NCBI GenBank assembly: GCA_949451655.1
Contig: CASTST010000002.1
Location: 2,201 to 66,200 of the forward strand
Direction of reading: 5' to 3'
DNA from: an uncultured Eubacteriales bacterium
GTDB taxonomy: Bacteria > Bacillota > Clostridia > Oscillospirales > CAG-272
Length of the DNA stretch: 64,000 nt
Position numbers and translations under genes: made by a program. Within the stretch, counting starts at the first letter, position 1, and every line of letters starts with the position of its first letter. Of this stretch, positions 640-57,622 are shown piece after piece. The notes under the pieces were generated by a model. The model had not been told where the DNA came from. It was given only the letters and a program-made list of their open reading frames with translations, and searched no databases.

Positions 640-1148
640 CGCGGGGCACCTTCTGTTTAAGCCCCGCTTGTGCACAGGGGGTAGCATACTGCAAGCACGA
701 TGCGGGGCCCCCCATTTATGCCCCACTTGTGCAAAAGAGGAGGAACACGCTGCAAGCTCCCACCATATCCCAAGCCCCCTTTACAAGGGAAGGTGGCATG
801 ACATAAGCTTCTACCATACCCCAAAGCCCCCCTGTGCAAAGGGAGTGCGGCTGCAAGCTTCCACCGTATCCCAAGCCCCCCTTGTGCAAAGGGGGGTGGC
901 GGCGGAGCCGGCGGGGGGATTGTCTATGTTAAACTGCCGATTTGTAATTCCTGCAAAATGATCGCTTTACAATCCCCCAGTCGACATCGCTGCGCTTAGT
1001 CGACAGCCCCCTTTGCACAAGGGGGCCTTTTAAAGTTATGTGCTAAGCGGAAGCTCCCTATGAAGCCACGCAGTGGATCCTCACAAGGGAGCCTTTAATA
1101 TATTTTGTGGCTACACGACATGCCCCTTTGCACATGGAGCCTTTTTGT
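640..1148. repeat. Mosaic palindromic intergenic repeat cluster A
   Basis: Multiple CCC(C)TTGTGCAAAGGG(G)-type hairpins. One TIR-bounded core at 915..977 (orientation R: GGGGATTGT..ACTGCCGATTT..CAAAATGAT..ACAATCCCC). Submodules GCTGCAAGCT.CCACC.TATCCCAAGCCCCC and GCCACGCAGTGGATCCTCACAAGGGAG recur in other clusters. Lies between convergent 3' ends. Confidence 0.85.
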
Positions 1149-1153
1149 TTCTG

Positions 1154-2032
1154 CTACAAGCAAGCATTGATCCGGCGGACGGCATCCTGTAAAATCTTTT
1201 CCGGATTGTTTTCATTCACCACAACAATGCGGCGGGACGAGTCAAATCCAACAATTTCTCCGTCCGCACCAAACAGCGGACGGTTGTGTACTTCCATTTT
1301 ACAGGCTTCGGGACAAATGAGAAGTCCCTCGGCGCAAAGATCCCATAACCCCTGTGCCCAGGAAATCTCCCGAAACCGTCTGCGCAGCCAGATACACAAC
1401 GGATTCTCTCCATTAAACAGCGCGTCAATTTCATCGTCTGTGCGTCGAAACGGCGCTACCACCTTTCCCGCGCAAACCAGCACCATGTTTTCCGCAAGGG
1501 AAAACAACAGCTTTCCCCCTTCAATATCGTTGTGATAATTATATTCACCTGTATTATTTTTCCCGTCCAGATCATCCAAAGCCAGCCATACCACAATCAG
1601 CCGTTGGCGAATTTCAGGATACATTGCCAGCGCGCTCGCTACATTGGTGCAGCAGCCAGTGATAACTACATATACAGGCTCCTTAGTTGAAAGCACTGCG
1701 CGGCGGATATTTTCTGCCCCGGGACTTTCCAGCGGATGCCCCGCACGGGTGATATAGTCCGGCGCTCCTGCAAATGCAGGAATTTTTCCGGCAAGCCCTG
1801 CAGCGGCAATAATTACTTCGCACTCTGCCTTACCGGCGGAAACAGTTTCTCCACTATTCTCATTAAAGGGTGCGGAAATGGCTGCAAGCACTTCCACCCG
1901 ATCCGGGGATCGCAGGGCATAACCCAGAGCAAATTGATCGTCTCCGTCGGCGCCTGCATCACAATCCACAATGATTTTCTTTACTTTTGGGCTTTGGATA
2001 TGCGCAACAATCTCTTCCGGTGACATAGACAT
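1154..2032 (-). CDS. Inosine-uridine preferring nucleoside hydrolase family protein
   Basis: 292-aa ORF with the N-terminal DCDAGADGDDQFALGYAL aspartate cluster characteristic of IU_nuc_hydro. The second ATG (2026) has better RBS spacing (AAGGAGA). Confidence 0.8.
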   Translation of the reverse strand: MSMSPEEIVAHIQSPKVKKIIVDCDAGADGDDQFALGYALRSPDRVEVLAAISAPFNENSGETVSAGKAECEVIIAAAGLAGKIPAFAGAPDYITRAGHPLESPGAENIRRAVLSTKEPVYVVITGCCTNVASALAMYPEIRQRLIVVWLALDDLDGKNNTGEYNYHNDIEGGKLLFSLAENMVLVCAGKVVAPFRRTDDEIDALFNGENPLCIWLRRRFREISWAQGLWDLCAEGLLICPEACKMEVHNRPLFGADGEIVGFDSSRRIVVVNENNPEKILQDAVRRINACL

Positions 2033-2111
2033 TCTCCTTTACATATGATTGACAAATCGCCATAGGTTGGGTAAACTTATATTATGTAAAAACTTGGCGG
2101 GGGGATAAAAC

Positions 2112-3014
2112 ATGCTGTTTTCAGATATTCTGGCAATTTCGGATTTATCCGATCACCCTATAATTCTCACAGGACATCTCCATCCGGATTATGACAGCGC
2201 CGCGGCATGTCTGCTCATGCAGCAGTTTCTGAAGCAGTGCGGTATAAATGCACAGATCTGTCTGTACGGCAAAATGGATGCACACAGCAACGCAGTCCTG
2301 CAAAAACATGGCTATGATCCAGAGACGTTGTTTGCACCGGTTCCGGAGAATGCCTGGCTGATTTTGTGCGACTGCCATACTACAACCCAGCCCGGCAAGG
2401 TGATCGCCTGTGTGGATCATCACCCCGTCATGGATGTGCCGGATATGCCTGTGTACCTAAACCGTTCGGCAAGCTCCGCCGGGCGGATCGTATATCACGA
2501 AGCAGCCGCATACGGACTGCAAACAAACCGGGAAACGGATTTCCTTACCCTTGCCTCTGTTTATATGGACACCCGTGCTTGCAGCAGCACAAAATTTCAA
2601 GCAGCGGACAAGCCATGGATGATAGAAACTGCTGCCCGGTGGAACTTTGATTTACCGGCTTTGGAGCGGGACGGACTGTGCCTGACAGATTTGACTCAAC
2701 CTGCGGATCTGTTGGCGCAAAACGATTTTCGGGCATACACCTTCGGAAAGTACCATGTTGCTTCCAGCTACGTGCAGGCGGAAAAGGAGGAAGCAGTGCC
2801 AATTGGGACACTGCTGGAATGCTGCGAGACAGCATGCTGCAGTGGAGCATATGATTATTGGGTGTTCCTATGCTATATCCCTCCCAAAAAAATAACGGAT
2901 GTATATTTGTTCAATCGGGATGAAAATGCATGGAATAAAACACGGCATGTGGGAATTCTTTCCCGGGGAAACGATGTAATTCCCGCATTGGAACGCAAGC
3001 TGATAGATCGGTAA
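2112..3014 (+). CDS. DHH family phosphoesterase-like protein
   Basis: 300-aa ORF with GHLHPDYDSAAA, ILCDCH and CVDHHP motifs (DHH motifs I-III pattern). Confidence 0.6.
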   Translation: MLFSDILAISDLSDHPIILTGHLHPDYDSAAACLLMQQFLKQCGINAQICLYGKMDAHSNAVLQKHGYDPETLFAPVPENAWLILCDCHTTTQPGKVIACVDHHPVMDVPDMPVYLNRSASSAGRIVYHEAAAYGLQTNRETDFLTLASVYMDTRACSSTKFQAADKPWMIETAARWNFDLPALERDGLCLTDLTQPADLLAQNDFRAYTFGKYHVASSYVQAEKEEAVPIGTLLECCETACCSGAYDYWVFLCYIPPKKITDVYLFNRDENAWNKTRHVGILSRGNDVIPALERKLIDR

Positions 3015-3084: not shown

Positions 3085-3520
3085 TACGCGAAAAGGTCCC
3101 CCCAGCAAAGGGAGCTGTCATGGAGCAAGCATTCATACAAAAAGGCTCCCTTGTGAGGATCCACTACGTGGTTCCATAGGGAACTGTCACGGAGCAAGCA
3201 CCCATATAAAAAGGCTCCCTTGTGCTGGAGCCGCATAGCGGATCCTATGGAGCTCCCGCGAAGCCACAAAATATATTAAAGGCTCCCTTGTGCAAAGGGA
3301 GCTCCCGCGTAGCGGGTGAGGGATTGTTTCTTTTATCATTTTGCAGAGATTACAAATCGACAGTATGTACAGACAATTCCTCCGTCACGGCTAAAGCCGC
3401 GCCACCTCCTTTTACACAAAGGAGGCTTGGAGAGATGGGAGCTTGCAGCCGCGCTCCCTTTGCACAAGGGGGCTTGGGGATATGGTGGTGGCTTACAGCG
3501 AGCCGCTTCTCTATCCTGGG
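3085..3520. repeat. Mosaic palindromic intergenic repeat cluster B
   Basis: Hairpins GGCTCCCTTGTG..; TIR core 3318..3382 (orientation F: GAGGGATTGT..TATCATTTTGCAG..AAATCGACAGT..ACAATTCCTC). Contains the reverse complement of the GCTGCAAGCT..CCCAAGCCCCC submodule seen in cluster A. Confidence 0.85.
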
Positions 3521-6028: not shown

Positions 6029-6613
6029 ATGACAACAAAAAATATAATGATCGTCGGCGTTGGCGGGCAAGGCTCTCTTCTGGCAAGCAGAATTTTGGGG
6101 GCAGCCGCTACGGCAGGCGGATATGAAGTAAAGATTTCCGAGGTGCATGGCATGAGTCAGCGCGGCGGATCCGTTGTAACGTATGTGCGCTACGGGGAGA
6201 AGGTAAATTCCCCTGTAATTTGTCAGGGAGAAGCAGACGTAATTCTGTCCTTCGAGCTTTTGGAAGCTGCAAGATGGCTGCCATTTCTGAAACCCGGCGG
6301 AACACTGATTACCTCTATCCAGGAAATTAACCCTATGCCGGTTATTATCGGCGCAGCGGAGTATCCGGCAGATTTGGCAGAGAAAATAGATGCGCTGGGC
6401 GTAAATATCATTGCGAAAGACGCCGCTGCTATTGCAGAAGAAGCAGGCAACGTACGGGCAGCTAATGTAGCGCTGATCGGACTTGGCGCCCATGTGCTGG
6501 GCTTTGATGCGGCAGTGCTCCGGGGTGCGGTAGAGGAATGCGTTCCCGCAAAGGCGCGGGAAATCAATCTGCGTGCCTTTGATTTGGCGGCAACACATCA
6601 GGATGTGCAGTAA
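6029..6613 (+). CDS. iorB: Indolepyruvate ferredoxin oxidoreductase subunit beta
   Basis: Starts MTTKNIMIVGVGGQGSLLASRILG (POR gamma-like fold). RBS GAGGAA upstream of ATG 6029. Tightly coupled to iorA. Confidence 0.85.
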   Translation: MTTKNIMIVGVGGQGSLLASRILGAAATAGGYEVKISEVHGMSQRGGSVVTYVRYGEKVNSPVICQGEADVILSFELLEAARWLPFLKPGGTLITSIQEINPMPVIIGAAEYPADLAEKIDALGVNIIAKDAAAIAEEAGNVRAANVALIGLGAHVLGFDAAVLRGAVEECVPAKAREINLRAFDLAATHQDVQ

Positions 6614-9142: not shown

Positions 9143-10231
9143 CTAACCATTGACATACGTGTACAGATTCAAACTGGTCGAATCAGCTATGCTTCCATCC
9201 AGTATATCCGCATTCATGAACCGCTTCAGCTGCGGATTGTAAAACCGCGTCCGCATGTACAACAGCCCATTGGGATCCGTCAGCACACCGTACTGCCCGT
9301 TGTAGCCGAAGATCAGCTTGCTGTCTCCCGTACGTTCAATCGTGCTTCCGTATGCGTCATACTTCAATGTGTCTGTCACATTGCCATCGATGTCTGTTAC
9401 TGCAACCACACTGCCACGGTAGTCGTAATGGTATACCATGTACTCCCCGTTGCATCGCGACCACAATAGTCCTTCCGTTCCATAGAAATAGCTGGTCTCA
9501 TTCTCATTGTGATCGCTCGTCCAGATCAGCCTGCTTCTTCCTCCCGAGCTGTCATACAGATACTGCATATTCGTATGATAGTAGTACATATTGATTCGGG
9601 TGCCGTCCGCATCATACCAGTATTCGTTATTGTCCCCGTCGATCTTTTTCAGGCGGTTGGTTACGTCATAGCTGATACTCACTTTCTTTCCCTGAATCTT
9701 GCAGGTGGTTGTATTTCCGTTCACCGTCACGCCGATTCCGTCTTCATTCATCTTGCTGATGCTGTTATTCTGATTGTATTTGTACGTGTTTGCTGTCCCA
9801 TCCGGCGTTACTGCTGTCAGGATGTTTCCTGCTGCGTCATAGGTGAAGGTTTCCGTATGAATCGCTTCGTTGGTACGCAAATCATATTCCACGCGCTGCG
9901 TTACCCGTCCCAGACTGTCGTAGGTCATACGGTAGTCTATCATTTCTATGGGATTCAGTTCCGATGTGATTCTTCCCAGCGTGTCATAGGTGAAGATATT
10001 GATAAACAGAATTTTTCCGGTCTTGTCTTTATCCGTCAGGATTTGCAGTCTGCCTGCGTTGTCGTAATTTTTCGTGACGGTTCCGCCGTCAATGTTGTTG
10101 ACTTTCGTAACCTGATTCTGTTTGTTGTACTCGTATGTGGTAGTGCATTCCTCTCCTTCCACTCCGCTGGTCAGCATGTTGTGGTTCGCGTCATAGGTAT
10201 ATACTGCTGCTTCTCCGGTTGCGTGCGTCAT
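9143..10231 (-). pseudogene. Orphan RHS core fragment (toxin-less duplicate of the RHS C-terminal core)
   Basis: The 362-aa ORF is almost identical to residues of the main RHS protein from MTHATGEAAVYTYD to NLYTYVNG. It stops right after YVNG, i.e. before the NPISFVDPFGL motif, and has no toxin tip. It is part of direct repeat 9147..10264. Confidence 0.8.
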
Positions 10232-10264
10232 TTTGCACAGGTTCCCGCAACAGTCGTATTCGTA
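9147..10264. repeat. 1.12-kb direct repeat, copy 1 (offset 2694 bp from copy 2)
   Basis: Aligns base for base with 11841..12958. ORF translations on both strands are identical across the centre. About 15 mismatches, clustered near both ends. Confidence 0.9.
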
Positions 10265-10326
10265 GCGGATGAATATCCAGTGTGTAACGCAGCTTGAAAA
10301 TCAAGCTGCGTTACCAATGTCACTTT

Positions 10327-10981: not shown

Positions 10982-13900
10982 TTATCGCCTTCCTGCTTGT
11001 ATTGCTATATATTCTGCAAATCCTTTTGCAACATCCGGATATATGCCTTCGCTATAGGATGAATCAAACATTGTCTTAAATGTATTCGTCAAAAGACCAG
11101 GTGCGAGATATCCCGCGGCACAGCTTTCCAATGCACTTTGACTTCCGTTGAACCCTCTATCCAAAAATAAAGAATATCTAGCTTTGTAACTATCACCATA
11201 ATATGTATCTATTGCTTCATAAATAGGTGTCTCATTCATATAATCTGCAATCAAAAAAGCATCAATGTCGCCAAGCAAATCGCTTTTGGGGAAGGTAGAT
11301 TTATCGCTTTCCATAAAATCCATTACAGCTTGTACAATATCTGAACTAGAAGATATACCAAGGTCTTGCACATTTCCAGCCAACGTAATCAGATCACCTG
11401 CCCAGCCTGCATATGCATTAAAAGCATTATCCAAACTATCATCCAAGCTGAAAGTATAGTAATAATTTGCATTTAAAGTAGCCATCGAATGCACAAAGTC
11501 AATTTCAGCACCAGAAGATGGATCAATAAACACGGCAGTTTTTAAATAATCATACTCATGAAACTGCTCTAAGTACTTTTGCCCTCCTCTGTCAATTGGT
11601 CCTGCTATTACGCTCCATGCTAAACCTTTTGCGGCACTTGCATCATAAAATCTTTTACTAATTATAAACTTCAATACTGCGTCATTTGCATACCTTTGGA
11701 CATAACCGGTATTCTCAGGTGTATTATAATAGGAAAAAGCTAAATTATACAGTCCTTCCAGTCCTGATATTATACTTAAATTATTGCTGTATCCCCGCTC
11801 CGCGCTCAACCCAAAAGGATCCACAAACGAAATCGGGTTCCCATTGACATACGTATACAGATTCAAACTGGTCGAATCCGATATACTTCCATCCAGTATA
11901 TCCGCATTCATGAACCGCTTCAGCTGCGGATTGTAAAACCGCGTCCGCATGTACAACAGCCCATTGGGATCCGTCAGCACACCGTACTGCCCGTTGTAGC
12001 CGAAGATCAGCTTGCTGTCTCCCGTACGTTCAATCGTGCTTCCGTATGCGTCATACTTCAATGTGTCTGTCACATTGCCATCGATGTCTGTTACTGCAAC
12101 CACACTGCCACGGTAGTCGTAATGGTATACCATGTACTCCCCGTTGCATCGCGACCACAATAGTCCTTCCGTTCCATAGAAATAGCTGGTCTCATTCTCA
12201 TTGTGATCGCTCGTCCAGATCAGCCTGCTTCTTCCTCCCGAGCTGTCATACAGATACTGCATATTCGTATGATAGTAGTACATATTGATTCGGGTGCCGT
12301 CCGCATCATACCAGTATTCGTTATTGTCCCCGTCGATCTTTTTCAGGCGGTTGGTTACGTCATAGCTGATACTCACTTTCTTTCCCTGAATCTTGCAGGT
12401 GGTTGTATTTCCGTTCACCGTCACGCCGATTCCGTCTTCATTCATCTTGCTGATGCTGTTATTCTGATTGTATTTGTACGTGTTTGCTGTCCCATCCGGC
12501 GTTACTGCTGTCAGGATGTTTCCTGCTGCGTCATAGGTGAAGGTTTCCGTATGAATCGCTTCGTTGGTACGCAAATCATATTCCACGCGCTGCGTTACCC
12601 GTCCCAGACTGTCGTAGGTCATACGGTAGTCTATCATTTCTATGGGATTCAGTTCCGATGTGATTCTTCCCAGCGTGTCATAGGTGAAGATATTGATAAA
12701 CAGAATTTTTCCGGTCTTGTCTTTATCCGTCAGGATTTGCAGTCTGCCTGCGTTGTCGTAATTTTTCGTGACGGTTCCGCCATCAATATTGTTAACCTTA
12801 GTGACCTGATTCTGTTTATTGTACTCGTATGTGGTAGTGCAGTCCTCTCCTTCCACTCCGCTGGTCAGCATGTTGTGGTTCGCGTCATACGTATATACTG
12901 CTGCTTCTCCGGTTGCGTGCGTCATTTTGCACAGGTTCCCGCAGCAGTCGTATTCGTACCGGACGACTCTACCATAGACATCCGTATACTTTGTTACACG
13001 GTTCAACGCATCATATTCCCGCTTCACCGTTCCGGTCGAATCGGAGGCTGTTAGTACGTTTCCGTTTGCATCGTATGTATATTGGATCGTTCCGGCTCCG
13101 CCGTCCTTTGCCGTGATCCTTCCTGAAAGGTCGTAAGCATACTCCATTTCATAATAGAAGAACCCGGTTACTACGGCATTCAGCAATCCTGCTGCGTTAT
13201 AGTAATAGCTATCCTTGTAGTCTGTATGAGTACTGCCTTTTCTAAACATACGACCGGTGGAATCGTAGGCATATTCTTTTACATGCCCGCCGGGACCTGT
13301 CATAGACGTCAGGTTCCCCATGCCGTCATAAGTAGCATAACTGATTCCGCCCGCTTTGTCAATAGCTGAAATCATCTGACCTGCTCCGTTGTAGGTATAG
13401 GTCGCAGACTGATTCATCGCATTGGTTTCTTTTGTCAGATTGCCTGCCCAGTCATACGCATTGGTGGTTTTACTCCCTGCCGCGTTGGTCACCTGGGTAG
13501 CATTTCCCATGCTGTCATACACTGCCTGATAATCCACATGACCGGATGCATTTGTGATTTTCACAATATTGCCGAGGGCGTCATATTCCTGGGTTATGGT
13601 ATTTCCTTTTGCATCCGTCTGGGCTGTCATTCTACCAAGGGCGTCATACGTATAGGATACCACATGCCCACCGGGATCTTTTGTCGAAACAAGTCGATTC
13701 AAGCTGTCATAAGTATTTGTTGTGATCTGATTCAGCGCATTTGTCACTGTCAGCAGATTGTCTGCTTTGTCATAGGAATACGTTGTTGTATTTCCTCTGG
13801 GGTCGGTGACGATAAGCAGGTTTCCGAAGGCGTCGTATTTGTTGTTTGTTTTGTTGCCCATGGGATCCGTCACATAGATCAAGTCTCCCGCAGTGTTATA

Positions 13901-16744
13901 GGTATATACAGTTTCGCCGCCCTGGGAATTGACAGATTTTATCATCCGGCCATTGTTGTCGTAAGTATAGGAGGTGGTAACAGTAACATTTGTCATTGCC
14001 CAGTCCTCACCCTCATAATCTTCCGGATAATCAAAATCATAGTACGGATCATAAATCGTCAGGGGCTCCTTTGTTTTAGTGAGATTCCCCGCCGCGTCAT
14101 ACTCTTTCAGGATTACGCCGCCTTCTGCGTTTGTCGTTTTAACAACATTATTCGCCGCGTCATACTCGAATGCAGTGGTATTTCCGTCCCGGTCGGTCTG
14201 TTTTATCAGTCTGCCCCCTGCATCATAGGTATTGACTGCGGTTGTGCCATCGGGATAGCTTGTCCGGATCAGTCTGTCCTCGCCGTCATATGCATACCGG
14301 ATCGTTTTACCGTTGGGCAAAATCATAGAAGTCATTTTCAGGTTTCCGTTATAGGTATAGGAAGTGACGTTGCCTTTTGCATCGGTAGACTTCACAAGGC
14401 TGCCGCCTGCATCGTATTCCTTTGCAGTTACATTTCCTGCTGCGTCAGTAACCGTAAGCATATTGCCTTTGTTGTCGTAGGTATAGCTTGTGGTATTGTC
14501 CTGCGCGTCAGTGACAGACATCAAAAATCCGGCTTCATTATACGTTTTGGTTGTTGTTCTTCCCAGAGGATCTGTAACGGTCGTTGGCTGTCCTTTGGTA
14601 TATGCGTACGTAACGGTTCTGCTCGCATAAGATGCCTTGGTAAGCAGATTCTGTGCGTTATACGTATATGTAGTGGTAACGCCCCGCAGATCTTTGCTGG
14701 AGGTCAGCAGGTTTTTACTGTCATAGGTTTTGGTAACAGTGCCGCCGCCGGGGTATTGCACTTTAGTAAGGTTATTTTTTGCATCGTAGGTATATTCGGT
14801 TTTGTTTCCAAGTTTGTCTGTACTGGAAATCAGGTTATCCCGTGTATCGTATACATTTACGATGCTGTTGCCCAGTCCGTCTGTTTTTTTGGTCAGATTT
14901 CCGTGGGAGTCATATGTATATTTTGTTTCCGCGCCGTTCGGATCGGTTTTGCTGATAAGCTGTTTTTTATCATTGTACTTGTATACAGTTGTCTGCATGG
15001 TTCTGTCGGTAACGCTGACCAGCAGATAATCGGGATTTGTTGCTTCATCATAGCGGATGACCGTTTCCGTGTTATCCGCAATTGCGTCCTTCTGACTGAT
15101 TACTCGTCCTGCGCTGTCATAGGTATCTGTGAAATAGATAATACCGTTCTGATCGCGTCCCCGCTCGATCTGTCCCTTTTCGTTATACTGATAAGACAGG
15201 ACTTCTCCGTTTTCATCGGTAATGGAAACAAGATTGCCGTCAATGTATCCCAGCGTACAGGTTCTGCCCGTATTGTCCGTTACAGATGTGATTTTTCCGT
15301 CGCTGTTTTTCGTAAGCTGCATATATCTGCCGGAAACTTCGTCTGTAATTTTTATAGTATTGTTATTGGGATATGTGATCAACGTATTCAATCCGGTTTT
15401 GCCGGTGATTTTTATAAGTCTGCCGTGGTAATCGTAATATTCCGTAGACTGATCGCTGCAGTTTACAACGTAACTGGTATTCAGCCCGTCCGGGATCCTG
15501 GTCGCGGTGTAGTTTTGCTTTGTAACCGTATCGCTTTTAAATACATTGGCATCGGAAGCAGTCTTTTTATACACAGCATAATAGGCGGGACTGTCGTAAA
15601 TATAGAGTGCGTCGCCATCGTCTGCAATTTTCTTTTCAAAATTATGAGACCAGCCCCTGCCCACGGAGCCTTCTGTCAGCACGTTAGAGCGATAGCTGAT
15701 GCCAAAGCTCAGCGTCTGTGCGCCGGAAATGGTCATTAGTGTATGGTCGATCACATGTGCGCCGGTGCTGAGATCAATGAGATCTGCGTGATACTCGTCC
15801 TTCAGGGCAGGCTTTTTCGGTACTTCAACCGGTTCCTTCACTGTTGTATCCTTCGGTGGCGCAACCGCTGTACCGCCGCCGGAAGTCTTTGTAATTACAA
15901 TCGCCTGTTTGCCAAGGGCCGCGTATGCTTTCTCAACACTTGCCTTGGAATAGCCCTGTATTTTCTTTGCCATGGGATCGTTGAAGTAATAGTTGTTTTC
16001 ATCGTATCCAACCAACAAGAGACAGTGAAGCTTATTGTTATATGAAATAGATTCGCCGTCTGGAGTTACCCAGGTGTGCACCTTATATGTAGAAGTCATG
16101 CCGACCGTTGCCCACATAACAACAGGGATCCCTTTGTCAATATAAGTTGTGCATAAATTCTGCAAAGATGTTCCGGATGCATTGGTAGCTTTCACACCTA
16201 TTACATTTTCAAGCTTACCGACAGCTTTCATAATTACAGGAGAGAAGCATCCCCAGCTTTTGTCATTATAACCCGGAAACGGATTTCCCATGTATACTTT
16301 GTTTGGATTGGGTCCGCTGTTTCTTGATGGAGAAGGAGTGCTGGAAGTCCAATCCAAATAGTAGTTTAAAAAAGCCGACAAGCTTATTTTATCCGTACCA
16401 ACGGCATGCTGCAATGCCATAACGGTGCTGGCGCTTTCACAGCCGTTCGGCAGTTTTTCGTTAAACTGATTGATATAGGGGGCATCAATCAGTTTCGCAT
16501 TTTTCGATGGTGTCGGATCCATGCCTTTGCGCTCATAGATACGGATATCCAGCGCCTCAATCTTTTCTTTCGTAGACCAGCCGGCATTGGTTGTACCGGT
16601 ATCAAGAGCACCGGGAAGACCAAACTGATCTTGAATGGCTTCCATAACTGGCGGTTCCCCGTTGCTTGCCCAATCCAGCCACCCTCTGCCGGTAACCTTC
16701 GCGCGGTACATGAGGCGTTGGATTTTGCTGTAAATAACCTTCAT
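10982..16744 (-). CDS. RHS/YD-repeat polymorphic toxin with an N-terminal papain-like (peptidase C39-like) domain
   Basis: 1920 aa. N-terminal ChW-like fragment (YRAKVTGRGWLDWASNGE..IEALDIRIY). C39_2-like domain (PNGCESASTVMAL .. HCLLLVGYD). Pro-rich linker. Dozens of YD repeats (YTYDxxGN..). RHS core end DPNGLLYMRTRFYNPQLKRFMNADILDG..NLYTYVNGNPISFVDPFGL. Then a 274-aa unrecognised C-terminal tip (10985..11806). Confidence 0.9.
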   Translation of the reverse strand: MKVIYSKIQRLMYRAKVTGRGWLDWASNGEPPVMEAIQDQFGLPGALDTGTTNAGWSTKEKIEALDIRIYERKGMDPTPSKNAKLIDAPYINQFNEKLPNGCESASTVMALQHAVGTDKISLSAFLNYYLDWTSSTPSPSRNSGPNPNKVYMGNPFPGYNDKSWGCFSPVIMKAVGKLENVIGVKATNASGTSLQNLCTTYIDKGIPVVMWATVGMTSTYKVHTWVTPDGESISYNNKLHCLLLVGYDENNYYFNDPMAKKIQGYSKASVEKAYAALGKQAIVITKTSGGGTAVAPPKDTTVKEPVEVPKKPALKDEYHADLIDLSTGAHVIDHTLMTISGAQTLSFGISYRSNVLTEGSVGRGWSHNFEKKIADDGDALYIYDSPAYYAVYKKTASDANVFKSDTVTKQNYTATRIPDGLNTSYVVNCSDQSTEYYDYHGRLIKITGKTGLNTLITYPNNNTIKITDEVSGRYMQLTKNSDGKITSVTDNTGRTCTLGYIDGNLVSITDENGEVLSYQYNEKGQIERGRDQNGIIYFTDTYDSAGRVISQKDAIADNTETVIRYDEATNPDYLLVSVTDRTMQTTVYKYNDKKQLISKTDPNGAETKYTYDSHGNLTKKTDGLGNSIVNVYDTRDNLISSTDKLGNKTEYTYDAKNNLTKVQYPGGGTVTKTYDSKNLLTSSKDLRGVTTTYTYNAQNLLTKASYASRTVTYAYTKGQPTTVTDPLGRTTTKTYNEAGFLMSVTDAQDNTTSYTYDNKGNMLTVTDAAGNVTAKEYDAGGSLVKSTDAKGNVTSYTYNGNLKMTSMILPNGKTIRYAYDGEDRLIRTSYPDGTTAVNTYDAGGRLIKQTDRDGNTTAFEYDAANNVVKTTNAEGGVILKEYDAAGNLTKTKEPLTIYDPYYDFDYPEDYEGEDWAMTNVTVTTSYTYDNNGRMIKSVNSQGGETVYTYNTAGDLIYVTDPMGNKTNNKYDAFGNLLIVTDPRGNTTTYSYDKADNLLTVTNALNQITTNTYDSLNRLVSTKDPGGHVVSYTYDALGRMTAQTDAKGNTITQEYDALGNIVKITNASGHVDYQAVYDSMGNATQVTNAAGSKTTNAYDWAGNLTKETNAMNQSATYTYNGAGQMISAIDKAGGISYATYDGMGNLTSMTGPGGHVKEYAYDSTGRMFRKGSTHTDYKDSYYYNAAGLLNAVVTGFFYYEMEYAYDLSGRITAKDGGAGTIQYTYDANGNVLTASDSTGTVKREYDALNRVTKYTDVYGRVVRYEYDCCGNLCKMTHATGEAAVYTYDANHNMLTSGVEGEDCTTTYEYNKQNQVTKVNNIDGGTVTKNYDNAGRLQILTDKDKTGKILFINIFTYDTLGRITSELNPIEMIDYRMTYDSLGRVTQRVEYDLRTNEAIHTETFTYDAAGNILTAVTPDGTANTYKYNQNNSISKMNEDGIGVTVNGNTTTCKIQGKKVSISYDVTNRLKKIDGDNNEYWYDADGTRINMYYYHTNMQYLYDSSGGRSRLIWTSDHNENETSYFYGTEGLLWSRCNGEYMVYHYDYRGSVVAVTDIDGNVTDTLKYDAYGSTIERTGDSKLIFGYNGQYGVLTDPNGLLYMRTRFYNPQLKRFMNADILDGSISDSTSLNLYTYVNGNPISFVDPFGLSAERGYSNNLSIISGLEGLYNLAFSYYNTPENTGYVQRYANDAVLKFIISKRFYDASAAKGLAWSVIAGPIDRGGQKYLEQFHEYDYLKTAVFIDPSSGAEIDFVHSMATLNANYYYTFSLDDSLDNAFNAYAGWAGDLITLAGNVQDLGISSSSDIVQAVMDFMESDKSTFPKSDLLGDIDAFLIADYMNETPIYEAIDTYYGDSYKARYSLFLDRGFNGSQSALESCAAGYLAPGLLTNTFKTMFDSSYSEGIYPDVAKGFAEYIAIQAGRR
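11841..12958. repeat. 1.12-kb direct repeat, copy 2 (inside the main RHS gene)
   Basis: Counterpart of 9147..10264. Homology begins exactly at the codons for YVNG, just upstream of the DPFGL boundary. Confidence 0.9.
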
Positions 16745-39834: not shown

Positions 39835-39899
39835 AAGATCAGCTTTACGTTGCGTCCAACTCCAAAAGACTTCCGGGTGTAGATGTGGCACAAGCACAA

Positions 39900-40330
39900 C
39901 TTCAATCAAAAGGCTCCCATGTGAGCTGTCGCGCAGATCCCTACTTAAAAGGCCCCCTTGTGCGGGGATCCGGTTTCGAATCCCTGGGGCATCCCGCGGA
40001 GCAAGCACCCACATTAAAAGGCCCCCTTGTGCAAAGGGGGCTCCCGCGAAGCGGGTGGAGGATTGTTTGTATAAGCTGCCGAGTTATTATATCTGCAAAA
40101 TGATAGCATGACAATCCCTCAGTCATGCCTACGGCATGACAGCTCCCTTTGCACAAGGGAGCCTTTTTAAACGTGGGTGCTATGCGGAGATAGCTCCCTA
40201 TGGAGCCACGCAGTGGATCCTCACAAGGGAGGCTATGAAGTAGGACGAGGTTTGCAGCGCATCGCCTCCCTTTGATGGGGGGAGCCTTTTAAGTTATGTG
40301 TTACGCGATAGTTCCCTTTGCTGGGGAATT
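39900..40330. repeat. Mosaic palindromic intergenic repeat cluster C
   Basis: TIR core 40057..40120 (orientation R). Flanked by hairpins CCCGCGAAGCGGG and GTCATGCCTACGGCATGAC. Also contains GGGGATCCGGTTTCGAATCCCTGGGGCATCCCGCG and GCCACGCAGTGGATCCTCACAAGGGAG submodules. Confidence 0.85.
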
Positions 40331-40749: not shown

Positions 40750-40936
40750 ATTCCCCGGCAAAAGGGACCTGTCACACAGCACCCGCGTTAAAAGCCTCAT
40801 GTGAGGATCTGCGGCGCAGCTCCATAGGGGGCTGGCTCCGCGTAGCGGAGACTGAGGGATTGTTTTTACTATCATTTTGGATAATGATAAAATCGGCAAT
40901 CTGTGCAAACAATCCCCTCGCTTTGTACAAAGCAAA
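40750..40936. repeat. Mosaic palindromic intergenic repeat cluster D
   Basis: TIR core 40854..40919 (orientation F) preceded by hairpin CTCCGCGTAGCGGAG. Flanking C-rich hairpin variants. Confidence 0.8.
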
Positions 40937-41080
40937 ACTAAACTTGTGCTTTGCTTCTCTTTCCCAGAGAACACCATTTTTAGTCCAATCACTTCAATGC
41001 TGCTCCATTACAGGCGCGGCTTGATTAAATTTATGCGACACGGGGAAACCTATAGGAAAGCCAACAGAAAGGCAACAATC

Positions 41081-42283
41081 ATGTATATCAACCCTAAACT
41101 GCGAGATATCCGATACGAAATCCGCGGCGCACTGCAGCAAACCGCAGATGAAATGCAAAACCGCGGCGAAAAAATACTGCATCTTAACATTGGAAATCCT
41201 GCTTCGTTCGGATTCCGCGCACCGGAAGACTTACTGCACGCCTATACGGATCGTCTTATTGCATCCCAAGGATATTCCGACTCCCGGGGGCTTCTCAGCG
41301 CCCGGCTGGCTATTACAGAATACTGCCGCAAAAAAGGGATGTTTCCTTATTCCACCGATACGGTGTATACAGGCAATGGCGTCAGTGAAATGATCCTTAT
41401 GTCTATGCAGTCACTGCTGGAAAACGGGGACGAGGTGCTTGTTCCTGCACCGGACTATCCTCTGTGGACTGCCGCAGTTCGGCTGGCAGGAGGGCGCGCT
41501 GTACATTATCTGTGCGATGAAGCCGCAGGGTGGATTCCCGATTTGCAGGATATGGAACGGAAAATCACCTGCCGCACCCGGGGGATTGTTTTAATCAATC
41601 CCAACAATCCGACAGGCGCATTATACCCTGCCGCGGTACTATCGGAAATCGGTGCGCTTGCCCGACGGCACGGGCTGATCTTACTGTCAGACGAAATTTA
41701 TGATCGGCTGGTGCTGGATGGTCGCACCCACGTTGCCACCGCTGCTGCCGTGCCGGATGTACCGGTTGTCTGCTATAACGGACTTTCCAAATCCCACCTG
41801 GTTTCCGGATTTCGGTGCGGATGGATGTGCTTGTGCGGAGACTGGTCCCGGCACAGCGGATTTATCCGGGGAATGGATTTGCTCGCTTCTCTGCGGCTGT
41901 GCTCCAATGTGCCTTCCCAGGCAATTATTCCGGACGCTCTTGCAAACGATGCTGCAATGCAGGCGCTGCTCGCACCCGGCGGAAGGATTTTCCAACAGCG
42001 GCAAGCTGTATGCGATGCATTGGCAGAAATCACTGGAATCAGCTTTTGTACACCCCAGGCAGGATTTTATATTTTTCCGAAAATAGATTTGCACAGATAC
42101 CCTATTGGTGACGATAATGCGTTTGCAGCCCGTCTGCTCACCAGAGAGAAAATTCTTATTACGCCGGGAACCGGCTTTAACTGGACTACTCCGGATCACT
42201 TTCGCATTGTGTTTCTGCCAACGGCAGAGCAGCTTACAGATGCGGTTGCGCGGATTGGTTCGGTATTGGAATCTTTTGTATAA
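41081..42283 (+). CDS. Pyridoxal-phosphate-dependent aminotransferase (AlaA-like, class I/II)
   Basis: MYINPKLRDIRYEIRG N-terminus, LNIGNP, INPNNPTG and YNGLSKSHLVSGFRCGW (PLP-Lys context). The ORF-track start at 40877 lies inside repeat cluster D. Confidence 0.85.
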   Translation: MYINPKLRDIRYEIRGALQQTADEMQNRGEKILHLNIGNPASFGFRAPEDLLHAYTDRLIASQGYSDSRGLLSARLAITEYCRKKGMFPYSTDTVYTGNGVSEMILMSMQSLLENGDEVLVPAPDYPLWTAAVRLAGGRAVHYLCDEAAGWIPDLQDMERKITCRTRGIVLINPNNPTGALYPAAVLSEIGALARRHGLILLSDEIYDRLVLDGRTHVATAAAVPDVPVVCYNGLSKSHLVSGFRCGWMCLCGDWSRHSGFIRGMDLLASLRLCSNVPSQAIIPDALANDAAMQALLAPGGRIFQQRQAVCDALAEITGISFCTPQAGFYIFPKIDLHRYPIGDDNAFAARLLTREKILITPGTGFNWTTPDHFRIVFLPTAEQLTDAVARIGSVLESFV

Positions 42284-42289
42284 ACGAAA

Positions 42290-42888
42290 AAGGCTGCCCA
42301 CGGCAAAGGAACTCCCGCAAAGCACAAACAAAAAGGCTCCCTTGTGTAAAGGGAGCTCCCGCGTTAGCGGGTGAGGGATTGTTTTGTGATGATCATTTTG
42401 CAGGATCAATAAATCGGCAGTATGTTTATACAATCCCTCCGAGTTTTGCTACGCAAAACCCACCTCCCTTTACACAAGGGAGGCTTAGGTTTGCTTGAAG
42501 GCTCCCTTGTGAGAATCCACTACGCGGCTCCTAAGGTACTATCGCGCAGCCACCGCGTTAAAAAGGCTCCCTGTGCGGGGATTCGCTTTCGAATCCCTGG
42601 GGCATCCCGCGAAGCGGGTGGGGGATTGTTTTTACTATCATTTTGGATAATGTTAAAGTCGGCAGTATGTACAGACAATTCCTCCGACACGATCGCTGCG
42701 CTTGGCCGCGCCACCTCCTTTTACACAAAGGAGGCTTATAAAATTGGTAGGAAGGCTCCCTTTGCACAAGGGGGGCTTTTATTGCTTGTGCTATACTACT
42801 GCAGCTGAGGGAGCCTTTTTACTTGTGCTATGCGGTTCCAGCACAGGGGAGGCTTTTTGTTTGGTGGGGCTCCTCACATGGGAGCCTT
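42290..42888. repeat. Mosaic palindromic intergenic repeat cluster E (two cores)
   Basis: TIR cores 42373..42439 and 42620..42684, both orientation F and 247 bp apart. Many CCCTT(T)GTGCAAAGGG-type hairpins. GGGGATTCGCTTTCGAATCCCTGGGGCATCCCGCG submodule. Fills the convergent alaA-like/uvrA gap. Confidence 0.9.
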
Positions 42889-42891
42889 TCC

Positions 42892-45741: not shown

Positions 45742-45819
45742 ATACGATCATCCTTTTTATAGTTGGAAAGAAGGGAGTTTGTAAGGCTCTTTCTGCTGGA
45801 ACTGTACAACATGCTCCGT

Positions 45820-46275
45820 TAAAGGCTCCCCTAGCAAAGGGAACGCTAAACTTAATCAAGCCCCCTTGTGCAAAGGGGGGTGGCTCGCTGTAAGCGAGTC
45901 GGGGGGATTGTAAAGCTGTCGATTTATAGATAATCTAAAATGACAATAGGGACAATCCCTCACCCGCTAACGCGGGAGCTCCCTTTGCACAAGGGAGCCT
46001 TTTAAGTAGGGTGCTACGCGGAGCCAGCACAAGAGGGGTGTCACAGCTTTGCTGTGACGGGGGGATTGTACGCATAGGCTGGTGATTTATAGATCCTGCA
46101 AAATGATAGATAACAATCCCTCAGTCATGCCTACGGCATGACAGCTCCCTTTGCACAAGGGAGCCTTTTAAGTATGCTGCGCTCCGCGGGATGCCCCAGG
46201 GATTCGAAACCGAATCCCCACACAAGGGAGCCTTTTAAGCTTGATTTCGCTACAGTCTCCGGCGGAGCCTTTTTG
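45820..46275. repeat. Mosaic palindromic intergenic repeat cluster F (two cores)
   Basis: TIR cores 45902..45961 and 46060..46122, both orientation R. Flanking hairpins GCTCGCTGTAAGCGAG, GTCACAGCTTTGCTGTGAC and GTCATGCCTACGGCATGAC. GGGATTCGAAACCGAATCCCC submodule. Confidence 0.9.
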
Positions 46276-46404
46276 GTTCCTACAAACTTATACACGCAAG
46301 CGTTCGCCGGGAAGCGAACGCTTGTTTGTTACTGCTATTGTACAGAATATAATATGACAACAGTGTGTCATATTATGACGAATTTTATACCTTTTTGTCC
46401 GGTA

Positions 46405-48934: not shown

Positions 48935-49240
48935 AAGTCTCCCATGTAAGGAGCCGCTATGCGGATCCTAGTGGAACTTGTCGCGCACGCACCTAACTCC
49001 CTAAGGCTCCCTTGTGCAAAGGGAGCTGGCTCCGCACAGCGGAGACTGAGGGATTGTCTATGCTATCATTTCAGATACCCTGAAAATTGGTAGTTTTTCA
49101 ATCCCTCCGTCACACCTACGGTGTGCCACCTCCCTTTACACAAGGGAGGCTATAAAGTAGGACGAGGTTTGCAGCGTGTCGCTTCCCTTTGCACAAGGGA
49201 GCCTAAAAAAGGTTTGCTCCAGCACAAGGGAGCCTTATAC
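48935..49240. repeat. Mosaic palindromic intergenic repeat cluster G
   Basis: TIR core 49048..49107 (orientation F, more diverged). Hairpins CTCCGCACAGCGGAG, GGCTCCCTTGTGCAAAGGGAGC and CCTCCCTTTACACAAGGGAGG. Confidence 0.85.
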
Positions 49241-52073: not shown

Positions 52074-52081
52074 AAAATGGA

Positions 52082-52110
52082 AAAGGACGCTTTACAAAAG
52101 CGTCCTTTTT
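52082..52110 (+). terminator. pyrG intrinsic terminator
   Basis: AAAGGACGC-TTTACAAAA-GCGTCCTTT followed by TT. Confidence 0.75.
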
Positions 52111-52149
52111 ACATTGTGGGGGAAAGATCCGTTGCACACGCGCAGCTTC

Positions 52150-52500
52150 ACTCAAACGAAAAGGCTCTCTTGTGCGGGGATTCGGTTTCGAATCCCTGGG
52201 GCATCCTGCGGAGCAAGCACCCACATTAAAAGGCCCCCTTGTGTGGGGATTCGGTTTCGAATCCCTGGGGCATCCCGCGAAGCGGGTGGGGGATTGTCCC
52301 TGCTATCATTTTGGATTATCTTCAAATCGGTAACCTATGCAGACAATCCCTCAGTCTCCGCTATGCGGAGCCAGCTCCCTTTGCACAAGGGAGCCTTTTT
52401 TGTTTGTGCTACGTGGGAACTCCCTTGGAACTGCGCAGCAGATCCTCACATGGGGTCTTTTGTAGTTAGTGCTGCACGACAGCTCCTTCGGATCCGCACG
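52150..52500. repeat. Mosaic palindromic intergenic repeat cluster H
   Basis: Two copies of GGGGATTCGGTTTCGAATCCCTGGGGCATCC(T/C)GCG. TIR core 52288..52352 (orientation F). Hairpins CTCCGCTATGCGGAG and GCTCCCTTTGCACAAGGGAGC. Confidence 0.9.
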
Positions 52501-52594: not shown

Positions 52595-52828
52595 AAATAT
52601 TCCATTGTATGACCCACTGTGCCGTGTAAAGTCATAATTAAGAAACCCTGCTAAAGCAAGGTGGTGCCCTATATCCGCACTTCGTGCTTCCAACGTCCGG
52701 GTCCGCCTGTCGCAAAGGAGAGGCGGGCGGGAGGCCTGCATTCCCGTTTGGGGTCGAGCTCCATTAATCAACTGTGGGTTTAATTAAAAACCTTATCACT
52801 AACACCGCAGGCTGAATAAATTCTTTAC

Positions 52829-55364: not shown

Positions 55365-55820
55365 AAGGAAAAGCCTTCCTTGTGAGAGACTCCGACAAAC
55401 ACCCCCTTGTACTGGAGTTTGCGTAGCACAAACATAAAAAGGCTCCCCCCAACTGGAGCTGCACAACACAAACATAAAAAGCCCCCTTGTGCAAAGGGGG
55501 GCGCGGCCAAGCGCAGCGATCGTGTCGGAGGGATTGTTTGCATAGACTTCCGATTTGAAGATTAGCTAAAATAATAGCATAGACAATCCCTCACCCGCTA
55601 CGCGGGAGCTCCCTTTGCACAAGGGAGCCTTTTATCGTGGGTACTACGCGGGAGCCCCCTTTGCACATGGGGGCCTTTTATCGTGGGTACTACGCGGAAG
55701 CCCCCTTTGCACATGGGGTCTTTTATCGTGGGTACTACGCGGAAGCCCCCTTTGCACATGGGGTCTTTTTCGTTGGGACCACGCGGGATGCCGCGGGGAT
55801 TCGAAAACGAATCCCCACTT
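55365..55820. repeat. Mosaic palindromic intergenic repeat cluster I (with 45-bp tandem array)
   Basis: TIR core 55528..55592 (orientation R). Four tandem 45-46-bp units at 55611..55791 (CCCCTTTGCACATGGGG.CTTTTATCGTGGGTACTACGCGGAAGC). Terminal GGGGATTCGAAAACGAATCCCC hairpin. Confidence 0.9.
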
Positions 55821-55828
55821 TGTCTGTG

Positions 55829-57253
55829 TTACTTCAACATAGATATCGCATCGGAAATCGTTTTTTCAAAGGCTTCTCTGCCGTATTTATCCACTTCCGC
55901 CTTGTTTTTATCTCCGTGCGTTAGGCAGCCGGCGCCGCCAATACAGCCGCCGGAACACGCCATACCTTCAATAAAGTTCGCATCCAGCACGTTTTTGCTT
56001 TTCTTGAGAAGTGCTGTGCGGCAGGCTTCAATTCCGTCACAGGGGAGCGCTTTCAACTGGAAGTCCTCGATTCCGTGTTCCTTCAGTCCCTGCGCCACTG
56101 CATCGGACAGTCCACCGCTTCTGGCAAAGATTCTGCCGAAATAGGATGCATTATCCAGCACGTCTTCTTCCAGCTCGGTAATTTCCAAATCCTTACTGTC
56201 AAACAGTGCCTGCAATTCCTCAAAGGTCATTGCCACATCCACATACGGACGCACAGACTCCTTCTGCACTTCCGCTTTTTTCGCCGTACAGGGACCGATA
56301 AATACAACCTTGCAGGGTGCCTCATGCTCCTTGATATATTTCGCAATCGTTGCCATGGGGGACAGGTTGTGGGACACAAATTCCAAAAGATCCGGGAAAA
56401 ATTTGCCGATATAATCCACAAACGCGGGGCAGCAGGAACTTGTGAGAAATCCCTTTTCCGCAAGTTCTTTGGATTCAGCATGCGCCACCATATCTGCGCC
56501 AAGCGCCGCTTCCACTACCGTGTGGAAGCCCAGTTCTTTCAATCCGGATATAACCTGCCCCAGCTTTGCATATCGGAACTGACTGGATATGGAGGGAGCA
56601 ATGACTGCAAACACCTTATACTTCTGATTGTTTTCGCTTTTCTTTAAAATGTCGATTACATCCAGAATATAGGACTTATCCATTATTGCGCCGAAGGGAC
56701 ACTGATATACACATGCGCCGCAGGCGATACACTTGTCATTATTGATTGCGGCAGCTTTATTTTCGTTCATATAAATTGCTTTGATTTTGCAGGCGTTTTC
56801 GCAGGGGCGTTTCCGGTTGACAATGGCAGTGTAAGGACACACCTTTGCGCACGCGCCACAGTCCACGCATTTGGACTTGTCAATATGCGCCACGTGATCG
56901 TGGTCAAAAGAAATGGCACCTCTGGGACAAACGTCCTCACACCGGTGAGCAAGGCAGCCCCGGCAGGAATTTGTGACCTCATATCCGCCCATGGGGCATT
57001 CGTCGCAGGCGGTTTCGATGACCTCGATTACGTTGGGGTTTTCCTTATCCCCGCCCATAGCAAGTTTGACCCGGTCTCCCAGAATTGCCCGTTCTTTATA
57101 TACGCAGCACCGCATGGTGGACGTTTTGCCGGGAACGATTTTCTTCGGGATTTCCATGATATTATCCAGAAGGGTATCGTTCCAGGCTTGCTTTGCCACT
57201 TCCCGCAGAACTTTATATTTCAGATGCTGTACTTTTGTATCAAATTTTCTCAT
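55829..57253 (-). CDS. [FeFe]-hydrogenase (ferredoxin-domain + H-cluster domain)
   Basis: 474 aa. Two 4Fe-4S CxxCxxCxxxCP motifs. H-cluster signatures TSSCCPAF (L1), GPCTAKKAE (L2) and EGMACSGGCIGGAG (L3). Confidence 0.85.
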   Translation of the reverse strand: MRKFDTKVQHLKYKVLREVAKQAWNDTLLDNIMEIPKKIVPGKTSTMRCCVYKERAILGDRVKLAMGGDKENPNVIEVIETACDECPMGGYEVTNSCRGCLAHRCEDVCPRGAISFDHDHVAHIDKSKCVDCGACAKVCPYTAIVNRKRPCENACKIKAIYMNENKAAAINNDKCIACGACVYQCPFGAIMDKSYILDVIDILKKSENNQKYKVFAVIAPSISSQFRYAKLGQVISGLKELGFHTVVEAALGADMVAHAESKELAEKGFLTSSCCPAFVDYIGKFFPDLLEFVSHNLSPMATIAKYIKEHEAPCKVVFIGPCTAKKAEVQKESVRPYVDVAMTFEELQALFDSKDLEITELEEDVLDNASYFGRIFARSGGLSDAVAQGLKEHGIEDFQLKALPCDGIEACRTALLKKSKNVLDANFIEGMACSGGCIGGAGCLTHGDKNKAEVDKYGREAFEKTISDAISMLK

Positions 57254-57324
57254 AAAAATCCTCGATTATGACCGCTCCTGCGGTTATTGACAATAAAATG
57301 GATTCGGTTTACACTTACCTGATA

Positions 57325-57622
57325 GCCTCCCCCAGCAAAAGGGAGGGGTAGCTGGAAGCTCCGCCCCTCTTTTTAGCCTCCCTTGTGCAAAGGGAGGTGT
57401 CACAGCTTTGCTGTGGCGGAGGGATTGTAAAACTACCGATTTACAGATTATCTAAAATGATAGCAAGGACACAATCCCCCACCCGCTTCGCGACAGCCCC
57501 CTTGGAGCCACGCAGTGGATCCTCACATGGGGGCCTAACACAAGACTTGAGCCTCCCCTGTGCAAGGGGAGGTGCCGGCAAAGCGTAGCGATGGCGGCGG
57601 AGGGGTTGTTCGTCTATACATT
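57325..57622. repeat. Mosaic palindromic intergenic repeat cluster J
   Basis: TIR core 57419..57479 (orientation R) preceded by GTCACAGCTTTGCTGTGGC. GCCACGCAGTGGATCCTCACATGGGGG submodule. Degenerate half-core GGAGGGGTTGT at about 57598. Confidence 0.85.

Follow-up and report, generated by a model that had tools for sequence, protein, structure and literature searches.

What are the palindromic sequences that crowd the intergenic regions of a 64,000-nt stretch of DNA (hereafter the window) from an uncultured Eubacteriales bacterium (contig CASTST010000002.1, positions 2,201–66,200), and how do they spread? An earlier note on this DNA had described ten intergenic regions built from four recurring modules and a core bounded by terminal inverted repeats (TIRs), and had likened them to the bacterial interspersed mosaic elements (BIMEs) of E. 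coli. We find them to be a real and hitherto undescribed family of repeats, of a general type already known, i.e. one resembling repetitive extragenic palindromes (REPs), BIMEs or miniature inverted-repeat transposable elements (MITEs). With a probability of roughly 0.6, these are lineage-specific, non-coding, nested-palindromic DNA repeats that represent a Clostridial counterpart of REP/BIME (REPIN-like) or foldback-MITE elements.

Comparison with dinucleotide-preserving shuffles indicated all four modules to be far more frequent in the window than expected: the hairpin GCTCCCTT-N5-AAGGGAGC matched 16 times against 0.05 expected, and GGGGATTCGGTTTCGAATCCCTGGGGCATCCCGCG (six matches), GCCACGCAGTGGATCCTCACAAGGGAG (five) and GCTGCAAGCT.CCACC.TATCCCAAGCCCCC (two exact matches, besides diverged copies) each stood against none in the shuffles. 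The same ten regions were delimited by self-BLAST of the window and by BLAST against non-orthologous loci of related genomes, in agreement with the original count. They occupy 3.4 kb (5.3% of the window) by strict measurement or ~4.2 kb (~6.5%) by eye, making the former figure of 4.4 kb (7%) slightly generous but fair. After over-extended starts of open reading frames (ORFs) had been corrected (Pfam, 40 ORFs; gene calls on related contigs), all ten clusters lay between real genes, and the ORFs seeming to overlap repeats proved to be over-extended or spurious. The flanking genes are of the housekeeping type, including SOD, uvrA, aconitase, glnA, pyrG, uvrB, Fe-hydrogenases and others. The 64 kb hold 12 occurrences of the TIR-bounded core and at least 27 outer-hairpin units, every one of them intergenic, with outer and inner hairpins of 13–25 bp. 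A long stretch from 3.5 to 39.9 kb is free of repeats and contains low-GC accessory blocks (an RHS toxin locus and a serine-recombinase island).

Copies of the family also occur outside the window. A scan for the core pattern, covering one genome per species, matched at least 82 loci. Six were chance matches in other phyla without a real core; among the matches listed, all others lay on dozens of contigs of three uncultured Clostridia/Eubacteriales metagenome-assembled genomes (MAGs), labelled from their contig accessions as TEM (CANTEM), PFW (CANPFW) and LAS (CATLAS). Genes common to the window and these MAGs are 84–94% identical, which makes the window's lineage a fourth one. Across 717 kb of related sequence we counted 253 cores, distributed over dozens of contigs and at least four species-level lineages of uncultured Clostridia, and the 16 kb flanking the window added seven more (~1 core per 4.2 kb over 80 kb). 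Since contigs 100% identical to the window are present in independent ENA and JGI assemblies, an assembly artefact is excluded; several contigs end within repeat clusters.

No already described repeat or non-coding RNA family, a match to which would have removed the novelty suspected earlier, was recovered from Rfam, plasmids, phages or the literature searched. In a gathering-score Rfam scan of the whole window, just two tRNAs and 6S RNA passed, and a permissive scan of 39.8–57.7 kb gave no match to a cluster at E < 1. Plasmid and phage collections contained no match to the family. A viral contig set yielded one true copy, on a 5-kb contig, along with three chance matches. Two outer-hairpin 15-mers had no occurrence in the literature searched. 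A 2013 survey of GTAG/CGTC-tagged REPs covers Proteobacteria, Cyanobacteria, Chloroflexi and PVC, with Firmicutes not mentioned.

The oriented flanks of 194 non-redundant cores, drawn from the window and related sequence, revealed a constant layout with two arm types. The canonical element is a ~150-bp foldback in which an L arm and an R arm enclose a ~45-bp AT-rich centre. The L arm comprises an outer hairpin, a variable inner hairpin and CGGRGGGATTGT; the R arm comprises ACAATCCCYCA, an inner hairpin, the outer hairpin GCYCCCTTTGCACAAGGGRGCC and TTTT. From outside inwards, the L arm reads ...AAGCC(T/C)CCCTTGTGCAAAGGG(A/G)GGTG, a short inner hairpin and CGG(A/G)GGGATTGT, and the R arm ...AAAAAGGC(T/C)CCCTTGTGCAAAGGG(A/G)GCT, an inner hairpin and (C/G)TG(A/G)GGGATTGT, its outward reading ending in GCYCCCTTTGCACAAGGGRGCC plus TTTT. 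The core itself spans ~65 bp with the consensus CgGaGGGATTGT ctgcat AtaCTgcCgATTT gtAgattc TgCAAAATGATAG tAtag ACAATCCCTCag, and the centre holds two conserved motifs, CTGCCGATTT and CAAAATGATAG. In an alignment of 41 canonical elements, TIRs and outer hairpins were invariant and the centre spacers varied freely. Among 180 cores, arms were paired as L-R in 94, R-L in 36, L-L in 15 and R-R in nine, i.e. 36/130 L/R elements carry their centre in inverted orientation with respect to the arms. Beyond the arms, further arm units form 46–50-bp tandem arrays. All solo TIRs in the window were chance matches. Modules had previously been said to occur in both orientations and in different orders: a dispersed palindromic family is indeed what we see, with a strict arm-centre-arm grammar in place of a free order.

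The inner hairpins fall into at least 15 stem classes, all of which fold, often with the apex GC-GYA-GC; examples are GGTTTTGC/GCAAAACT, CCGAT/ATCGG, CACAGC/GCTGTG, CCCGC/GCGGG and CTCCGC/GCGGAG. Some modules are variants of the outer hairpin with an extra palindrome in the loop, of which GGGATTCG-GTTT-CGAATCCC has the appearance of a core reduced to two TIRs and GGAGCCAC-GCA-GTGGATCC resembles an inner hairpin. The module GGTTTCGAATCC, a perfect 8-bp palindrome, resembles a core of which just the two TIRs are left; a tRNA origin was rejected for it, ARAGORN giving just two real tRNAs. In a given arm, the A/G variants of the outer hairpin (GGGyGG) and of the TIR (GGzGGGATTGT) are closely linked, with 113 AA, 51 GG, 23 GA and no AG combinations. 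This linkage persists across every inner-hairpin class (e.g. in the arms at 45859-45911 and 55480-55537), and no pairing register accounts for it. Imperfect inner stems almost always carry G.T, not A.C, on the strand read inwards to the TIR, on both arms (e.g. the inner hairpins at 57397-57418 and 3386-3407). This strand bias is symmetric about the dyad, and confounded by shared ancestry; owing to the symmetry, it is not accounted for by one transcript running through the element.

RNAalifold analysis of the 41 elements indicated two outer hairpins, a TIR stem and the right inner hairpin to be paired, eight pairs showing double-sided changes. Paired cells made up 98.6% of this structure, compared to 93.5% in shuffles and 47–63% when the partners were slid, and cells with double-sided changes numbered 74 versus 25 in shuffles. 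RNAfold further predicts a long-range stem between the L and R outer hairpins that would close a four-way junction; this stem showed no covariation, and we rejected it. At those TIR positions that vary, the states of the two arms of an element are likewise independent. Because hairpins covary locally and the two arms of an element do not, the local hairpins of each arm are what is conserved, and the arm is the unit of inheritance.

Comparison of orthologous sites revealed how the family changes. The TEM species is without clusters at the sites orthologous to pyrG-6S (cluster H) and uvrA-aconitase (cluster F), keeping a plain native terminator after pyrG. At its hydrogenase-SpoIIE site only a degenerate remnant without a core is found, made up of a truncated outer hairpin of the L type, a module resembling an inner hairpin and a TIR-like sequence that has collapsed. 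After pyrG, an element is present in both the window and the PFW lineage, with the centres in opposite orientation and one arm different. Between strains 99.2% identical over 11 kb, the sole indels of more than 8 bp were two, both inside repeats: a 38-bp unit gained or lost, and a plain outer hairpin swapped for an expanded one. Some 7.8 kb past the right end of the window lies a 328-bp higher-order repeat with one core per copy, of which one assembly (L097, 3098-3873) has three copies and its counterparts (L098/L099) have two; the latter are otherwise 100% identical to it over 13 kb shared with the window; this copy-number change is very recent. No other DNA varies as much between near-identical strains as these repeats, whose very fast local turnover proceeds through units gained or lost, swapped modules and tandem duplication of a higher order. 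Copies within the window are 74–83% identical over 140–224 bp, with invariant TIRs, which indicates the family to be old, with few motifs under strong constraint.

Two contigs from the same metagenome (JGI 3300006167) switch neighbourhood exactly within repeats. In L005, positions 6170-6315 join window position 52352 to 42561, the crossover falling within 43 bp that are the same in clusters E and H; L101 departs from window synteny at its position 2962, corresponding to 1028, inside a repeat element. Either the strain has undergone a rearrangement or duplication mediated by the repeats, or the assembly is chimeric.

The propagating unit is the arm, composed of a linker, the C-rich/G-rich outer hairpin, the short inner hairpin with its variable stem and a 12-bp end (GGRGGGATTGT). 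Two inverted arms around the ~45-bp AT-rich centre make the ~150-bp foldback, with extra arm units piling up alongside. The mechanism of spread is one that we infer: dispersal over many unlinked gaps calls for some transposition-like step, and a trans-acting enzyme encoded elsewhere in the genome could bring copies to new sites, candidates being a single-strand hairpin-recognising HUH/RAYT-like protein (RAYT, REP-associated tyrosine transposase) or a DDE transposase recognising the GGGATTGT ends. Slippage, unequal crossing-over and gene conversion would then enlarge the arrays and make their units more alike. With its T-run, the outer hairpin of the R arm would work as an intrinsic terminator, and copies would persist mainly at gene 3′ ends or antisense to tandem genes. 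That the low-GC accessory blocks are free of repeats fits such slow endogenous spread into resident DNA.

Several points weigh against this reading. No transposase, RAYT, IS200-like gene or multi-copy ORF was found in the window and ~0.76 Mb of related sequence, a small and biased sample. A weak test with IS200 TnpA and E. coli RayT probes gave no Y1/RAYT match in six-frame translations of the ~0.76 Mb, and Pfam detected no RAYT among the window proteins; MAG assemblies usually lose copies of insertion sequences (ISs). The flanks of 60 canonical elements showed neither a target-site duplication nor sharp ends, conserved linkers continuing outwards, and orthologous empty sites are too diverged for clean junctions. 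The divergence among copies in the window gives no sign of a recent burst. In tandem-gene contexts, 20 elements are co-oriented and 29 anti-oriented to the upstream gene, which is not the pattern of recruited terminators. Finally, covariation in palindromes can come from templated repair, by which DNA palindromes regain symmetry, and not from selection; we therefore do not take it as proof of a selected RNA.

A doubtful alternative is the classical cut-and-paste MITE, that is an internally deleted derivative of a DDE-type IS, mobilised by a full-length IS elsewhere in the genome, with either GGRGGGATTGT/ACAATCCCYCC or the whole ~50-bp arms as TIRs. The size of ~150 bp, the AT-rich centre and the near-invariant 11–12-bp inverted repeats would suit a MITE, conserved motifs beside each repeat could be transposase-binding sites, and clusters are present or absent between species. 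However, while the whole arms are inverted repeats, the invariant 11–12-bp repeats are internal, the outer ends are fuzzy, and target-site duplications and multi-copy ORFs are missing from the sequence surveyed above. All 24 TIR copies in the window are paired, 45–60 bp apart; no gene is bracketed by TIRs there or in the ~0.76 Mb of related sequence, and orphan TIRs in related loci stem from truncation and are not the ends of an IS. Tandem unit arrays and mixed L/R arm combinations are also atypical of MITEs.

Equally tentative is the view that these are REPIN-like, vertically inherited intragenomic replicators kept by a single-copy, domesticated, structure-specific enzyme that recognises the arm. 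Such an enzyme would read the outer hairpin, the inner hairpin and GGRGGGATTGT, the inner hairpin being exchanged as a cassette, and the linkage between outer hairpin and TIR, the dyad-symmetric G.T bias and the conserved GC-GYA-GC apex would be its footprints.

We then considered transcription termination. In line with the terminator-like hairpins reported before, we counted 54 terminator-like sites versus 21 ± 5 in shuffles, mostly R-arm hairpins. The R-arm outer hairpin, with an 8-bp GC-rich stem, a 5-nt loop and a following CTTTT, fits the intrinsic-terminator consensus. Outer hairpins with a T-run were about half as common when directed towards the beginning of the following gene (19/100 versus 58/151; Fisher p = 0.0012), and in tandem-gene contexts they were found at 14/73 in sense versus 30/71 in antisense orientation (p = 0.0036), counts that derive from crude gene calls and include non-independent orthologous loci. 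Divergent promoter regions hold few elements (9/81), and in cluster G, the sole cluster of the window in a divergent region, the hairpins are without T-runs in both directions. Judged from sequence, this suggests that T-run hairpins terminate transcription; the orientation bias would then mean that copies survive where stopping transcription does no harm or is of use. The terminator native to pyrG, AAAAGGACGCTTTACAAAAGCGTCCTTTT at 52081-52109, is present in the window lineage and the TEM species and absent in the PFW lineage (L001/L004 sites), where a repeat element abuts the stop codon and may have taken over pyrG termination.

These data would also be expected if the repeats were host-selected functional sites, namely bidirectional terminators, stabilisers of mRNA 3′ ends or nucleoid/topology protein sites as proposed for BIMEs, which multiply by recombination only and are retained for their usefulness. 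The orientation bias implies a transcriptional effect, one lineage has lost its native pyrG terminator where a repeat replaced it, and conservation is very uneven, with the TIR and two centre motifs invariant and the spacers free. Yet there is no preferred co-orientation with the upstream gene, related species are without elements at the same sites, many clusters contain several redundant units, and the low-GC accessory blocks of the window have none, for which slow endogenous spread is a better fit than functional need. We consider this explanation unlikely.

Still less probable are structured small RNA (sRNA) genes transcribed from L to R into a four-way-junction RNA with its own terminator: the core 7 element has a fold of very high stability (−78.8 kcal/mol, z = −9.9, on the L-to-R strand; −72.2 on the complement), a hairpin plus UUUU ends it, the TIR pair 58:127 is G-U in 31/41 copies (A-C on the other strand) and hairpins carry compensatory changes, but no conserved promoter is apparent (a promoter-like match in 3/10 cores with inconsistent orientation, −10-like positions being poorly conserved among 194 copies), L-L, R-R and centre-inverted forms are common, the junction closing stem does not covary, the inner-hairpin G.T wobbles are dyad-symmetric and not single-stranded, Rfam has no match, and orientation relative to neighbouring genes is random or anti.

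Two other candidates were discarded. A CRISPR-like array does not apply, as unique spacers are absent and the units are palindromic. An invertible promoter switch finds no support either, as ~99%-identical strains never differ in orientation at the orthologous cores inspected by eye.

Table 1 Repeat clusters and cores in the window (positions in the window; ranges in brackets as delimited by BLAST).
Feature	Position	Strand	Context	Layout or remarks
Cluster A	640..1150 (about 640/813-1128)		SOD gene (+) to nucleoside hydrolase gene (-)	L-type unit array, core, R-type units; tandem 50-bp L-type units at 749-893
Cluster B	3091..3500		DHH gene to ORF 3532	Reversed R-type units, core (-), L-type units
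Cluster C	39880..40326 (39945-40326)		Downstream of HD-domain gene	R-centre-R element, further units on either side
Cluster D	40760..40939 (40790-40939)		Upstream of aminotransferase gene	Single element, L side degraded
Cluster E	42283..42890 (42283-42833)		Aminotransferase gene (+) to uvrA (-)	Two cores plus terminator-like R-unit hairpins
Cluster F	45790..46280 (45821-46239)		uvrA (-) to aconitase gene (-)	Two cores
Cluster G	48935..49240 (48935-49212)		Divergent aconitase/glnA region	One element
Cluster H	52140..52490 (52159-52488)		pyrG to 6S RNA gene, after native pyrG terminator	
Cluster I	55370..55820 (55424-55818)		uvrB (-) to Fe-hydrogenase gene (-)	One canonical element plus tandem 46-bp R-type units at 55598-55788 (4.2 copies)
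Cluster J	57324..57622 (57324-57610)		Hydrogenase gene (-) to SpoIIE-domain gene (-)	Single element, with a core remnant near 57600
Core 1	912..980	+		TIR GGGGATTGT ... ACAATCCCC; canonical L-centre-R element 874-1031
Core 2	3316..3384	-		Canonical element 3278-3427
Core 3	40057..40122	+		Both flanks are R arms
Core 4	40852..40920	-		
Core 5	42371..42441	-		Canonical element 42330-42485
Core 6	42618..42686	-		R arm with expanded outer hairpin GGGATTCG-CTTT-CGAATCCC
Core 7	45900..45963	+		Canonical element 45859-46003; single strand predicted to fold as four-way junction
Core 8	46058..46124	+		Element missing at the same site in ~91%-identical relative L001
Core 9	49046..49109	-		Canonical element 49003-49151
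Core 10	52286..52354	-		Both flanks are R arms; centre inverted versus same-site copy in relatives L001/L004
Core 11	55526..55594	+		Canonical element 55480-55633
Core 12	57417..57482	+		

Beyond the repeats, the window encodes an RHS-repeat protein with DUF6531 (1920 aa; 10982-16744, − strand), followed by an orphan RHS fragment (9143-10231, − strand). The two have a stretch of 1123 bp in common at 98.7% identity (9147-10269 / 11841-12963), and the pair has the appearance of a polymorphic-toxin locus whose C-terminal cassette has been displaced; this block has 44% GC and is devoid of the repeat family. A large serine recombinase with Resolvase and Recombinase domains (547 aa; 23527-25170, − strand) neighbours an AAA-ATPase_like/PDDEXK_9 protein, a 1483-aa SF1 helicase-like protein and a DUF5710 protein. 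The block at 23527-34200 has a GC content of 43.6% versus ~51% in its flanks, holds no repeats and is probably an integrated island. Lying in this repeat-free island with no tie to the repeats, the recombinase was rejected as their partner. The former statement that the window encodes no transposase holds for the 40 large ORFs analysed with Pfam, although this serine recombinase gene does lie within the window, in an unrelated island. A 6S RNA gene (Rfam RF00013, 49.2 bits; 52607-52816, − strand) directly adjoins cluster H, and tRNA-Met and tRNA-Leu genes lie at 17596-17790 (− strand).

REP/REPIN-type repeats are best known from Proteobacteria, and a dense, ordered family in uncultured gut Clostridia adds a phylum with hardly any documented cases. 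For metagenomics, these repeats break assemblies, may give rise to chimeric joins or real rearrangements, and generate spurious ORFs; as the fastest-changing sequences between near-identical strains, they could serve as strain markers. If the terminator prediction is true, the repeats would shape 3′ ends and antisense transcription genome-wide. A mobilising enzyme, if found, could reveal a new hairpin-recognising mobilisation system, and the REPIN-like replicator view, if true, would make this the first such system described in Firmicutes, with a recognition logic unlike that of GTAG-tagged REPs.

Among known systems, intrinsic terminators have in common with the R arm a GC-rich stem-loop followed by a T-run. 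In contrast, the hairpin of the family sits in a larger repeat, L-arm hairpins and many copies are without a T-run, and several redundant copies occur per gap. The pneumococcal BOX element, with its modular boxA-boxB(n)-boxC structure, is likewise intergenic in a Firmicute host and has stable secondary structure, and the variable number of a ~45-bp internal or lateral unit is shared with our family. To our knowledge, however, BOX modules have a single orientation and neither palindromic arm-centre-arm symmetry nor a TIR-bounded core, and BOX has no sequence similarity to the family. Neisseria Correia elements (NEMIS), bcr1 of B. cereus and pneumococcal RUP are non-coding intergenic foldbacks of ~100–160 bp in hundreds of copies, with inverted ends and a stable RNA fold, which can affect transcription of their neighbours. 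The repeats described here are similar in size, copy number and stability of fold, are equally non-coding, intergenic foldbacks, and may likewise influence transcription of adjacent genes. Elements of the Correia type end in inverted repeats and duplicate a defined target site (TA in Correia, TTTAT in bcr1), whereas the invariant repeats of our family are internal and no duplication was seen; we know of no tandem sub-unit arrays in elements of the Correia/bcr1/RUP type.

E. coli-type REP/BIME and Pseudomonas REPINs, built of imperfect palindromes of 20–40 bp, are mobilised by RAYT / TnpA-REP, the gene of which is usually flanked by the repeats. REPs and BIMEs are short, extragenic, high-copy palindromes arranged in inverted head-to-head pairs with a conserved spacer of 20–100 bp; they fold as one long hairpin or as separate hairpins, form heterodimers and tandem clusters together with flanking DNA, lie mostly at gene 3′ ends and give rise to spurious small ORFs (PMC3733652, PMC3337134). 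The present family, too, consists of short extragenic high-copy palindromes, with inverted arm pairs around a conserved ~45-bp centre that can fold as a whole or hairpin by hairpin, two-type heterodimers and tandem 46–50-bp units; its members likewise sit mainly at the 3′ ends of genes and produce small spurious ORFs. REP palindromes carry a conserved GTAG (or CGTC) tetranucleotide at one end (PMC3733652). The hairpins analysed here have no such conserved flank; a GYAG-like heptamer is found instead in the inner-hairpin loop, where GYAG/GAAG is variable. An arm moreover consists of two hairpins plus a 12-bp invariant end, and the host is a Clostridium-class Firmicute. With the GTAG tag absent and RAYT not found in the sequence analysed, we do not file the family as REP proper, and it cannot be filed under any other defined repeat family either. 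The initial comparison with E. coli BIMEs therefore stands for the layout and not for membership, given the missing GTAG tag and the lack of defined ends or a target-site duplication. In that layout, with its arm pair and spacer, heterodimers, clusters and fuzzy ends, the family is closer to REP/BIME/REPIN than to cut-and-paste MITEs.

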